From NCBI RefSeq assembly GCF_003334765.1, contig NZ_QOWT01000011.1: a stretch of 64,000 nucleotides of DNA; one strand, 5' to 3'. Below, piece after piece: positions 24,044-29,311 of the stretch. The notes under the pieces are model-generated. The model saw only the letters and a program-made list of their open reading frames with translations, had not been told where the DNA came from and did not search any database. This DNA is from Escherichia coli. GTDB taxonomy: Bacteria > Pseudomonadota > Gammaproteobacteria > Enterobacterales > Enterobacteriaceae. The stretch's first letter is position 1, and every line of letters starts with the position of its first letter. The translations under genes were made by a program, and so were the position numbers.

Positions 24044-24760
24044 TCACAAGTAGACTACGCTTATCACAGCTTTCCCATCAAGTTCGATTTTTTCTGAACC
24101 GCCTAAATCATTCGCGATAGATGCGCTCACCTGAAGCGGTATAATGGCGTTCGTTACAGGAGTTGGGGTTGTTTCACCTGGTTTTACAAAGGTGTAATAA
24201 TAGCTTTGATCGACTGCAAGCGGATAAGCGGTGAGCGTTTGCCATGCTCTTTTTTGCCCTGTTATGACGGCATCTGCACCTGCTATTGATACAGCTAACG
24301 TCTGGCTACCATTGCTGGCACTAATGTTGTTGCTATCAATTAACACGGCATAACTACCGATATTTTTATTATCTTTTGTTTTCCCTAAGCCGAATAAGCG
24401 CGTTGTCTGGCTAATATAACCTCCGCCATTTAAGGTATATTTTACACCACTCTGACCCCCACTATCTTTTCCGGTGGTCATACTATCCATTCGTGTATCA
24501 CGAGCGGTAATCGCAATGCCGGTAGCGGATTCGCAAGTTATAGTCATATTAATATTACGTGTTCCAATCTGTGTGTAGTGCTGCGTTGAAAGTCTATTGA
24601 CTGAATGACTACCGAAGTTAACAACTCCGCCGTTGCTTAGTATTGGAGTACAAGCTGCAGCTTCCAGAGTCACCTTAACGTCAATTGATACTCTATCAGC
24701 GGCTTGCGCTGACATGGCAAAAAAGGCACTTCCGGCAATCAGTAATTTTACATTGTTCAT
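24044..24760 (-). CDS. yhcF: Putative fimbrial-like periplasmic protein YhcF
   Basis: 238 aa ORF with a signal peptide; C-terminus (...IELDGKAVISVVYL) resembles the GltF C-terminus (...KLDGNVTISVQYL); 4 bp overlap with the upstream ORF. Confidence 0.8.
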   Translation of the reverse strand: MNNVKLLIAGSAFFAMSAQAADRVSIDVKVTLEAAACTPILSNGGVVNFGSHSVNRLSTQHYTQIGTRNINMTITCESATGIAITARDTRMDSMTTGKDSGGQSGVKYTLNGGGYISQTTRLFGLGKTKDNKNIGSYAVLIDSNNISASNGSQTLAVSIAGADAVITGQKRAWQTLTAYPLAVDQSYYYTFVKPGETTPTPVTNAIIPLQVSASIANDLGGSEKIELDGKAVISVVYL

Positions 24761-25308
24761 TTTGCCTCCACCAGGACCGTCAGATTGCCTGTAATATCTG
24801 TCATGTCGGTTAGTTCCCCTTCATCCTTAAAAGCTGGAGCCATTGTCAGTGTGAGGCTAACGCTTTTACCGCTATCAATTACCACTTCTTGACCATTTTG
24901 CATAAACACCAGCCAATTATTGGGGGAAGTACTAATTGATGCTGTTCCTGTGCTGCCCGGATTGTCATTTTTGCCACTGGCTAACGCCAGGTCGAGATTG
25001 TTACTACCTGAAAATGCATCGCTGGCGATCAGATTTAATGAACCATTCGGGCCAAATCCAAATCCGTTGTTGGAAATATTAGCGGTATTCAACTGAACAC
25101 GAATATGAGCGTCCTGATCGCATTGCATTACCAGCGTGATTGTTCTGTCTGCTAATTGTGTTGTTTTACCCCGGTCAACTTGGCGCATGGCAGCACTTCG
25201 TTTGCCATAGTCGATATTTTGTATGCTACTGGAGATATTACACTCTGCCTGAGCGGCCATGGCGAAGTTCAGCAGCAGGCATCCTGTTATTATCCGTTTC
25301 ATTGGCAC
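24757..25308 (-). CDS. yhcE: Putative fimbrial-like protein YhcE, uninterrupted
   Basis: 183 aa ORF with a signal peptide (MPMKRIITGCLLLNFAMAAQA); overlaps the yhcD stop and the yhcF start, so likely translationally coupled. Confidence 0.7.
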   Translation of the reverse strand: MPMKRIITGCLLLNFAMAAQAECNISSSIQNIDYGKRSAAMRQVDRGKTTQLADRTITLVMQCDQDAHIRVQLNTANISNNGFGFGPNGSLNLIASDAFSGSNNLDLALASGKNDNPGSTGTASISTSPNNWLVFMQNGQEVVIDSGKSVSLTLTMAPAFKDEGELTDMTDITGNLTVLVEAK

Positions 25309-28375: not shown

Positions 28376-28546
28376 TTAAATTAAAACTCCTGTAATAATG
28401 ATAAATAACGCAGAAACATATTGTTAATATATGTTATGCACTGTTTGCGATGAGATTGATTAAGACAGACCATGTCATAGGGCATAATCTGTCCGAGTTA
28501 TAGCTAACTGGTTAATGCGTAAAAATAAAAACTGTATTACAAGTTC

Positions 28547-29311
28547 TTATAAATACTGAACGCTGATAGTGACGTTACCATCCAGTTTGATCGTTTCATC
28601 AGAACCAAGAATAGTATTGTCATTTACCGCAGCATCAATCAGTAACGGGAAGGTGACCGCTGTAATGGCAACAGGTGTCAGTTCCCCTGTTTTTGCAACA
28701 GAATAACCGCGCTCGATTGCTGAGCAACTTGTCAGCGAGCAGAATGCGCCATTAGATGAGGCTTTCCATGTGGGGGTCGCTGCTGACCAGTGGTCAGTTT
28801 GAATCAGGTCGACAGGAATTTCACCTGTATCGTCCGCCGCGTGAATCCCACCATTAGACCTGTCAATACCAATGGATGCAGCGCCAATTTTTTGTCCATT
28901 AGGCGCAGAACCTAAACCAAAGGCGTTTTTCGTTCCCTTCATATCTACGAGAGTATCATAAGCTTTTTCAATATAGGATGTGTCGTTTAACGCTACAATG
29001 GTCGACTGACGGTTATCCTTGGAGGTTACAGCAATTAGCGTTGGTGCTGTGCAGGTTATATTTAATGTGCTGTTTTTGCGGCCCAGTTGAACCAGTTTAT
29101 TACTTTTACCGGTCGGATTCAGCGCACTGTTATGATGTTTCCCATAGTCAACAATGCCGCCGCCCGTAACAACTGGGGTACATGCACCAGGGGTATACTC
29201 GCCGATGATAGTTAATTCTGTATCAGTTGAATCTGTTGCCATGGCACTGAATGCTGCAACAGAAAGTGCTGCACAAATAGCAGCTGTTGTGAGGTTCTTT
29301 TTGAAAAACAT
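28547..29311 (-). CDS. gltF: Periplasmic protein GltF (fimbrial-like, DUF1120)
   Basis: 254 aa ORF with a signal peptide; downstream of gltD; related to yhcF. Confidence 0.85.
   Translation of the reverse strand: MFFKKNLTTAAICAALSVAAFSAMATDSTDTELTIIGEYTPGACTPVVTGGGIVDYGKHHNSALNPTGKSNKLVQLGRKNSTLNITCTAPTLIAVTSKDNRQSTIVALNDTSYIEKAYDTLVDMKGTKNAFGLGSAPNGQKIGAASIGIDRSNGGIHAADDTGEIPVDLIQTDHWSAATPTWKASSNGAFCSLTSCSAIERGYSVAKTGELTPVAITAVTFPLLIDAAVNDNTILGSDETIKLDGNVTISVQYL

Follow-up and report, generated by a model that had tools for sequence, protein, structure and literature searches.

Gene content of the locus

We have analysed a window of 64,000 nucleotides (64 kb) of Escherichia coli DNA in which five genes of a predicted chaperone-usher system, gltF-yhcA-yhcD-yhcE-yhcF, occupy positions 24044 to 29311. 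They had been described from the sequence as co-directional, which they are; all five are full length and lie on the minus strand (not stated before), and no stop or frameshift was found in any of the five reading frames, yhcA and yhcD included. The first gene, gltF (28547..29311, 254 aa), encodes a DUF1120 subunit, the proposed major one. It is followed by yhcA (27701..28375, 224 aa), for a predicted periplasmic PapD-like chaperone, yhcD (25299..27680, 793 aa), for a predicted outer-membrane usher, the uninterrupted yhcE (24757..25302, 181 aa), for the proposed distal cap, and yhcF (24044..24760, 238 aa), for another DUF1120 subunit, in its K-12-type 717-bp form.

Over the 64 kb the window differs from K-12 MG1655 by 15 SNPs and by the absence of one 1195-bp IS5, being otherwise 99.98% identical, so that the view that this genome is not MG1655-like at the locus holds for IS5 only. 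GltF, YhcA, YhcD and YhcF are identical to the MG1655 proteins (the one SNP in gltF, at 28667, is synonymous), and the position, between gltD and yhcG-nanQ, is the same as in K-12. As judged from the sequence, it is essentially certain that 24044-29311 is the chromosomal yhc locus of a phylogroup-A E. coli in the ancestral, IS5-free state.

Two of the starts differ from those of the longest open reading frames, which begin at TTG 27698 (yhcD) and GTG 25308 (yhcE, 183 aa). A Shine-Dalgarno sequence AGGAG lies 7 nt ahead of ATG 25302 in yhcE and GGAG lies 8 nt ahead of ATG 27680 in yhcD and, because of these positions and of the RefSeq annotation, we favour a YhcE of 181 aa and a YhcD of 793 aa. 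The yhcE frame is continuous, as had been claimed, but its likely length is 181 and not 183 aa. With its start at ATG 25302, yhcE would therefore overlap yhcD by 4 bp (ATGA) and not by the 10 bp first given, like the overlap of yhcE and yhcF, for which the predicted 4 bp was correct.

The IS5 site and the state of yhcE

In MG1655, yhcE holds a 1195-bp IS5, with terminal inverted repeats GGAAGGTGCGAA, between duplicated copies of TTAG. The comparison with K-12 bore out the statement that yhcE is split there and IS5-free here: the window has the unoccupied target TTAG as a single copy (24932-24935), at which the K-12 and window BLAST blocks overlap by 4 bp. Both IS5 and the second TTAG are absent, and therefore yhcE is one 181-aa frame. 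Its product is identical to RefSeq WP_000821351.1 ('YhcE family protein').

In 779 of the 1142 complete genomes that carry yhcE, the gene is found in one place at a coverage of at least 80%, a count that includes some IS1-split copies. In this sense of DNA-level contiguity of yhcE (some IS1-split copies again included), the uninterrupted type of yhc is present in roughly 780 of the 5,426 complete genomes of E. coli. All of the split cases sampled were broken at the K-12 IS5 site, and the clusters of carriers are often truncated or disrupted by independent insertions of IS5, IS1 or IS3. Krol et al. (2019, PMC6805351) have previously described an IS5-free yhc cluster in E. coli C and Del Canto et al. 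(2017, PMC5216030) have done so for ETEC of phylogroup A; the idea of an intact cluster is also covered elsewhere (PMC3032704). The locus, its class, the IS5 lesion of K-12 and the fact that intact copies exist are thus already known, and the IS5-free cluster described here is real yet ordinary.

Chaperone and usher

The predicted chaperone-usher architecture was recovered by Pfam as a PapD_N chaperone, a PapC_N/Usher/PapC_C usher and two DUF1120 subunits. YhcD matched NCBIfam NF011832 with 1273 bits (cutoff 723) and the Pfam domains PapC_N (E 2.2e-9), Usher (E 1.1e-150) and PapC_C (E 7.7e-12). YhcA matched NF007392 over its full length with 319.7 bits (cutoff 183), and PapD_N with an E-value of 1.1e-23; PapD_C was not detected in it by Pfam. 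The hhalign alignment of YhcA with FimC covered residues 29-214 (probability 93%), and the nearest solved relatives are Caf1M, DraB, CupB2 and PapD. In the scheme of Nuccio and Baumler the locus falls in the beta-fimbrial clade, yhc type: the E. coli beta type is defined by the K-12 usher, with which YhcD is identical, and GltF and YhcF are DUF1120 proteins; the literature also places yhc in the beta clade.

The cleft residues Arg8 and Lys112 (PapD/FimC numbering), which anchor the subunit C-terminus, appear to be missing in YhcA. In sequence-based alignments of YhcA and FimC, at about 18% identity, Pro127 stands opposite Lys112 in three independent cases (HMMER to Caf1M, MAFFT and hhalign) and Ser27 or Val28 opposite Arg8 (MAFFT and hhalign). 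The pair was absent from all seven chaperones of the YhcA class examined, and its absence, a point new here, is therefore a trait of the class and not decay. In beta-class chaperones Arg8 is replaced by Ser, Thr or Val and Lys112 by Pro, and the replacement of both 'invariant' anchoring residues would imply a different grip on the subunit C-terminus. Together with the undetected PapD_C, this means that assembly chemistry may deviate from the textbook case.

The subunits

GltF carries a signal peptide, matches Pfam DUF1120 with an E-value of 1.8e-45 and is a paralogue of YhcF. The DUF1120 consensus, xLKVxGTLxxxAC, aligns with the FimA donor strand TVHFKGEVVNAAC, and the N-terminal segment of GltF, TELTIIGEYTPGAC, fits this DUF1120/FimA motif. 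The invariant residues of DUF1120 are Cys37, Cys76, Gly229 and Tyr237, and in the YhcF monomer model the donor-strand segment is disordered. The subunits have the incomplete Ig-like fold of pilins. That GltF and YhcF combine a pilin fold with a FimA-like N-terminal donor strand is, we believe, new.

The third putative subunit, YhcE, had been named as such, bearing a signal peptide. A direct Pfam search gave only a faint match to DUF1120 (E 0.11), which made a profile-profile comparison necessary; this supported the assignment (probability 96.9%, E 1.9e-10). The donor-strand segment is absent from the profile-profile alignment and is missing from YhcE and its relatives, and the pilin-type disulphide is present. 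YhcE thus seems to be a divergent DUF1120 relative that lacks the N-terminal donor strand, which is also new here. A search by sequence for relatives of YhcE and YhcF with solved structures found none. We considered, and rejected from the sequence alone, the possibility that YhcE is a lipoprotein: there is a Cys near the signal peptide, but no lipobox (AQA-EC). Gene order points to GltF as the major subunit and, taken with the absence of the N-terminal strand, makes YhcE probably the distal cap; it is from gene order and the presence or absence of this strand that we infer the division into major, minor and cap subunits.

Base composition, spacers and the glutamate synthase operon

The region had been described as more AT-rich than its neighbours, and this is so: with a GC content of 0.443, the cluster stands below both gltD (0.562) and the remainder of the window (0.517). 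Between gltD and gltF lies a spacer of 559 bp (29312..29870, minus strand) with a GC content of 0.322, which contains a promoter-like site and, adjoining gltD, a stable hairpin. The site, TTTACA-16-TATACT (29390..29363, minus strand), is a candidate by consensus match, and promoter and terminator scans gave counts no higher than the shuffled expectation. A 10-bp inverted repeat (TATCCTTAAT / ATTAAGGATA) flanks about 220 bp upstream of gltF, the best promoter-like site included. A fimS-like invertible promoter was discarded as a candidate, since an artificially inverted query against the 5,426 genomes found the inverted state in none of 1166 carriers. In the gltF-yhcA spacer there is a 12-bp stem-loop (28463..28494, minus strand; the fold of 28400-28546 has a z of -2.7), possibly, on weak grounds, an attenuator or a stabiliser of the mRNA end after the first subunit gene. 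As to the suggestion of silencing by H-NS, no occupancy of the yhc locus is apparent in the titles and abstracts of the papers found on gltF together with H-NS.

The same spacer bears on the historical annotation, by which gltF is the third gene of a gltBDF operon, acts in nitrogen regulation and stands outside the pilus cluster, yhcADEF. A regulatory function was attributed to gltF in the literature of the early 1990s. It is true that gltF comes after gltD on the same strand, and an operon of the name gltBDF is still described in papers. However, 559 bp of DNA at 32% GC, with its stable hairpin, separate the two genes, gltBD is present without gltF in ST131 and O157:H7, and GltF belongs to DUF1120, bears a signal peptide and is paralogous to YhcF. 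Moreover, in other DUF1120 clusters at unrelated loci DUF1120 genes also take the lead, upstream of the chaperone. We consider the gltBDF reading of gltF to be largely refuted and extremely improbable, and treat gltF as the first gene of the yhc cluster.

Borders of the variable segment and yhcG

Alignment to the ST131 locus delimits a variable segment of 7149 bp (22682..29830) that is missing in ST131 and comprises gltF-yhcADEF and yhcG. No integrase, tRNA or mobility gene is present in it. The neighbouring yhcG (22732..23859, minus strand), inside the segment and outside the pilus system, encodes a member of the PD-(D/E)xK nuclease family (DUF1016_N and YhcG_C in Pfam). A 26-nt palindrome of one repeat family (D1) bounds the segment at 29828-29856 and 22689-22717. 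Separately, three in-frame copies of the palindrome occur within yhcG, in repeats at 23451-23557; the yhcG allele of O157:H7, of 349 aa, has one copy. The 39-nt units of yhcG went unreported by the tandem-repeat finder because the copies are too divergent. In each genome the palindrome is confined to the yhc locus, where it occupies one or two sites, and for this reason we rejected the idea of a repeat dispersed genome-wide, such as REP. A locus-specific palindrome marking both borders of the island, with three copies inside yhcG, is new here.

Distribution and evolution

A blastn search in distant mode found yhcD in 1136 of 5426 complete E. coli genomes, everywhere as one and the same allele (at least 99% identity); the cluster is absent from about 79% of them. 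No divergent yhc alleles came to light in other E. coli, as this search returned only alleles of that identity. The cluster is cleanly absent from ST131 and O157:H7. In E. albertii and E. ruysiae it occupies the same site, between gltD and nanQ; the gene order is kept in both species and in a metagenome contig, with the same 4-bp overlaps wherever coordinates were read. Compared with the alleles of these two species the cluster has a dS above 1 (saturated), against 0.27-0.51 for the flanking genes, and the divergence is mosaic along its length. For all five genes pN is far below pS across the Escherichia species and the metagenome homologue, and dN/dS is 0.05-0.22 where it could be calculated.

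There are two ways of accounting for this pattern other than the one we prefer. One would be a recent horizontal gain into phylogroup A, as a classical genomic island. The low GC (0.44 against 0.52), the patchy presence of a single near-identical allele in E. coli, the saturated dS beside much less divergent flanks and the mosaic divergence all speak in its favour. However, the insertion point is identical in E. albertii and E. ruysiae, the segment is devoid of genes for mobility or integration, and the border palindromes are also found in genomes that lack the cluster, for which reason a deletion fits at least as well as an insertion; the higher dS could stem in part from the weak codon bias of genes that are AT-rich and poorly expressed. 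A recent gain seems to us rather unlikely. As the same site is occupied in E. albertii and E. ruysiae, the cluster would be old in Escherichia, with very deep allelic divergence, and the original description of the DNA as horizontally acquired, with which the low GC agrees, has to be qualified accordingly.

The other alternative is that the cluster is an evolutionary relic, intact here but silent, dispensable, without function and on its way to being lost. The 'ancient remnant' idea was already raised by Wurpel et al. It agrees with the small share of carriers and their single allele, the clean absences from ST131 and O157:H7 and the independent insertions of IS5, IS1 and IS3, and also with what is known from ETEC, in which variants with a premature stop in yhcD or a truncated yhcF occur and deletion of yhc in one strain left adherence to Caco-2 cells unchanged (PMC5216030). 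Against this stand the low pN relative to pS in all five genes, a gene order that is conserved together with the reading frames and the 4-bp overlaps, and the contiguity of yhcE at the DNA level in 779 of 1142 carriers (some IS1-split copies counted), and we hold a relic to be unlikely. What we propose, as a point new to this analysis, is that the yhc locus appears to be old in Escherichia, to be under purifying selection and, in the majority of E. coli lineages, to have been lost or inactivated.

A possible mechanism of assembly

Each checkable part of the original prediction (domains, intact genes, IS5-free state, GC content and YhcE as a subunit) was supported, and we consider it probable that an IS5-free beta-class locus, gltF-yhcA-yhcD-yhcE-yhcF, with the following mechanism of fibre assembly, is the best explanation as a whole. 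The three subunits would be exported by Sec and kept in the periplasm by YhcA through donor-strand complementation, and YhcD would join them into a polymer at the outer membrane through donor-strand exchange. Because YhcE has no donor strand and can only accept one, it should be the first to enter and end as distal cap or adhesin. YhcF and GltF, in which the pilin fold goes with a FimA-like N-terminal strand and a Tyr in the penultimate position, would polymerise beneath it, GltF being the probable major subunit as the product of the first gene, which is preceded by an AT-rich region of its own. A thin fibre would result, probably poorly expressed in laboratory conditions; we found no published demonstration of a yhc surface fibre or of adhesion by it.

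A dedicated gene for a single-domain subunit without donor strand follows the usher directly in almost all DUF1120 clusters, usually with a 4-bp overlap. It is possible, if somewhat doubtful, that beta-class (DUF1120) systems use a variant assembly chemistry, in which a YhcE-type protein would be initiator and distal cap and the chaperone would have an altered grip on the subunit C-terminus. If true, this role of YhcE would run contrary to the published view that beta-class clusters have no tip subunit. The donor-strand-less YhcE, the chaperones without Arg8 and Lys112 and the age and purifying selection of the cluster all provide testable hypotheses, and an intact natural copy, protein-identical to K-12, is a template for expressing the only beta-class chaperone-usher system of E. 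coli.

Comparison with known systems

The yhc locus of K-12 MG1655 (beta-class, IS5::yhcE) agrees with that of the window in position, gene order and strand and has four identical proteins; IS5 and the second TTAG are there and neither is in the window. The loci of ETEC (PMC5216030) and E. coli C (PMC6805351) consist of the same five IS-free genes without substantive difference, and the yhcF of the window is the 717-bp K-12-type form described in these papers, in both of which the function of YhcE was called unclear.

Farther away, the enterobacterial DUF1120 clusters between lplA and deoD (NCBIfam PRK15301-PRK15304) have the same order, with one or more DUF1120 genes, chaperone, usher, a YhcE-like gene and DUF1120. 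Their YhcE-like proteins are of 185-189 aa and have a Cys directly after the signal peptide, as in YhcE, and the gene overlaps that of the usher by 4 bp. They differ in chromosomal site, in that two or three DUF1120 genes stand at the front, and in sequence (21-47% protein identity). A donor-strand-less YhcE-like gene follows the usher in three unrelated DUF1120 clusters, two of them (L012 and L013) between lplA and deoD and one (L014) elsewhere; the junction is a 4-bp overlap in the first two and a 38-nt gap in L014.

Type 1 fimbriae (fimAICDFGH) have in common with yhc a PapD-like chaperone, an usher with N-terminal, pore and C-terminal domains, and subunits with a pilin fold, an N-terminal donor strand of the type V-x-F-x-G-x-V...C, a disulphide and a penultimate Tyr. 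Unlike them, yhc has DUF1120 subunits and not those of Pfam Fimbrial (PF00419), no two-domain lectin adhesin, a chaperone without Arg8 and Lys112 in which PapD_C is undetected, and no invertible promoter (inverted state in 0 of 1166 genomes). Along similar lines, the Afa/Dr adhesins have single-domain tip subunits, AfaD/DraD, that lack a donor strand. By the same logic YhcE, as an acceptor of a strand that donates none, could stand only at the distal end, a likeness in the logic of assembly.

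Gene Layout and Comparison with K-12

The cluster consists of five co-directional ORFs, all on the minus strand and with the outer coordinates originally predicted (24044-29311). In the six-frame ORF list these are gltF (29311..28547), yhcA (28375..27701), yhcD (27698..25299), yhcE (25308..24757) and yhcF (24760..24044), yhcD and yhcE being given as longest ORFs. Upstream are gltB and gltD, and downstream yhcG, followed by the convergent nanQ/nanK. The coordinates agree with the 4 bp overlap expected between yhcE and yhcF, but the 10 bp proposed for yhcD/yhcE depends on the start codon. 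Because Shine-Dalgarno-like motifs (AGGAG 7 nt ahead of ATG 25302 in yhcE, GGAG 8 nt ahead of ATG 27680 in yhcD) and the RefSeq lengths (YhcE 181 aa, YhcD 793 aa) favour these starts, the overlap is, judging from sequence, most likely a 4 bp ATGA matching that of yhcE/yhcF. The yhcE frame is uninterrupted as claimed, but RefSeq gives 181 aa from ATG 25302 and not 183.

Alignment with MG1655 gave two blocks sharing 4 bp. The K-12 sequence is longer by 1195 bp, an insert that has GGAAGGTGCGAA as terminal inverted repeats, carries an annotated IS5 transposase and is bordered by TTAG on each side, whereas the window has a single TTAG (24932-24935), and the predicted IS5-free state is thus borne out. 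Besides IS5 there are no further indels and only 15 substitutions over the full 64 kb. No disruption of yhcA or yhcD was found: four of the proteins (GltF, YhcA, YhcD and YhcF) match K-12 residue for residue, and YhcE is identical to WP_000821351.1. As expected for such a K-12-like region, Rfam matches above the gathering score were the ArcZ sRNA beside arcB (39803-39910, minus strand) and the greA leader (61555-61676, plus strand).

The AT-richness relative to the neighbours also holds, with a GC profile of 0.39-0.46 versus 0.55-0.59 in gltBD (exact values: cluster 0.443, 559 bp gltD-gltF spacer 0.322, remaining window 0.517). Upstream of gltF, an exact 10 bp inverted repeat (29319-29328 and 29552-29561) flanks ca. 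220 bp and encloses the best promoter-like site, an arrangement that looks like an invertible switch. However, none of 1166 carrier genomes shows the inverted orientation, so the repeat has probably arisen by chance in this AT-rich DNA.

The observation behind the original prediction is therefore confirmed and its interpretation supported, but the intact yhc locus is already known from published accounts. Archer et al. (PMC3032704) list it for K-12 as "gltF-yhcF, beta, IS5::yhcE" and as missing in strains W, B and Crooks; Wurpel et al. placed Yhc in the beta clade, lacked an intact representative and raised the question of whether it is an ancient remnant. Del Canto et al. (PMC5216030) described 13 phylogroup A ETEC with a complete IS-free gltF-yhcADEF, termed the function of YhcE unclear and found Caco-2 adherence unchanged upon yhc deletion, and Krol et al. 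(PMC6805351) reported yhcE without IS5 in E. coli C. What goes beyond this literature is only the palindrome and the hypotheses on YhcE and the chaperone presented below.

Distribution and the Variable Segment

Of 5426 complete E. coli genomes, 1136 carry yhcD DNA, in every case with at least 99% identity, and a word-11 blastn search of the same genomes found no divergent allele. At least 80% of the yhcE query was covered in a single place in 779 of 1142 carriers (some IS1-split copies are counted here). In the others yhcE is split, and the split cases sampled were all K-12 derivatives broken at query position 409, the K-12 IS5 site; IS1 and IS3 insertions were likewise seen in the locus.

In ST131, gltD is followed directly by nanQ, without the cluster or yhcG, while the O157:H7 arrangement is gltD-yhcG-nanQ. 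The segment absent from ST131 has borders at 22682 and 29830 (7149 bp). A second presence/absence difference lies less than 8 kb away, between nanR and sspB (15437-17194, replaced by ca. 76 bp in ST131), and holds an anaerobic C4-dicarboxylate transporter gene, dcuC-family per the K-12 record.

A 26-nt palindrome, ATTCGCCAGAC-NNN-GTCTGGCGAAT, forms each border of the yhc segment (29828-29856 and 22689-22717); ST131 has one copy. Three more, in frame and spaced by 39 nt, are found within yhcG (23529-23557, 23490-23518 and 23451-23479), and others at L003 (9046-9070), the E. albertii locus L005 (11282-11306) and the E. ruysiae locus L007 (11721 and 11847); none was found outside this locus in the E. 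coli genomes searched. When 11 copies are aligned, paired cells make up 95.5%, both sides have changed in 4 of the 12 stem pairs (compensatory changes) and the covariation score was reached by none of 500 shuffles. Folding of the three tandem yhcG copies gives -67.6 kcal/mol (z -10.9). The palindrome could be a terminator, a recombination/deletion site or a target of YhcG, and deletion between copies could plausibly have produced the cluster-free state.

The yhcG gene (22732-23859, repeats 23451-23557) encodes DUF1016_N and a PD-(D/E)xK nuclease domain. Its product has 375 aa in K-12 and in the window (which differs by R103H) and 349 aa in O157:H7, where there is one palindrome copy. The 26 aa gap corresponds to two added 13-aa units, IPQTPSAEFPSAK and IWQTLSAKSFPLP, encoded by perfect hairpins; across the repeats the protein drifts (R, then P, then W), whereas the DNA stays self-complementary. 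In E. coli Ec-050-T5-ESBL (L002, 8542-10891) the locus is otherwise identical, but yhcG is truncated by a fragment of an IS3-family element together with a group II intron reverse transcriptase that carries a frameshift. The segment appears to have an insertion hotspot at its yhcG end.

Divergence Beyond E. coli

Both E. albertii and E. ruysiae carry the same five genes between gltD and nanQ, with the same 4 bp overlaps where coordinates were read, and the set was also found on one metagenomic contig. In all five genes pN is far below pS (Nei-Gojobori), with dN/dS of 0.05-0.22 where calculable. Protein identities of these alleles are 59-86% within the cluster versus 92-99% for gltD, nanQ and nanK, and synonymous sites in the cluster are saturated. 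The divergence is a mosaic: E. albertii is nearer to the window in gltF, yhcA and yhcD (78-83%, versus 62-74% for E. ruysiae) and E. ruysiae in yhcE and yhcF (78-86% versus 59-69%). This pattern suggests old allelic lineages that recombined near the yhcD/yhcE boundary.

Proposed Assembly and Comparison with Known Systems

YhcD has a full usher architecture in Pfam, and both YhcD and YhcA score above the curated NCBIfam cutoffs. GltF and YhcF are members of DUF1120, a family (680 clusters, E ≤ 0.001) in which four residues are invariant: two Cys, one Gly close to the C-terminal end and the penultimate Tyr. AlphaFold models YhcF with confidence (pLDDT 88.6), showing a disordered segment from the signal peptide to the first Cys. 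The DUF1120 N-terminus aligned to the FimA donor strand. We infer that the cluster would run on standard donor-strand complementation and exchange, with YhcF and GltF as the polymerising subunits. YhcE would be a strand acceptor and not a donor, and since it could accept but not donate a strand, it would be incorporated first, as the distal cap.

Unrelated DUF1120 clusters, at lplA|deoD (L012 and L013) and elsewhere (L014), share the yhc layout. Directly after the usher they encode a Pfam-negative protein of 185-207 aa that aligns with YhcE and has, like it, an N-terminal Cys adjoining the signal peptide. The chaperones of seven DUF1120 clusters were compared, namely YhcA (27701-28375), in which Pfam PapD_C has no match, and those of L005, L007, L008, L012, L013 and L014. 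An RQ(D/N)LPV(L/I)IHP motif is invariant in all seven, and FimC Arg8 is replaced by Ser, Thr or Val in each. Textbook chaperones such as FimC and Caf1M have an anchoring, supposedly invariant Lys112; the DUF1120-class chaperones depart from them, with Pro at this FimC/PapD/Caf1M position in all seven.
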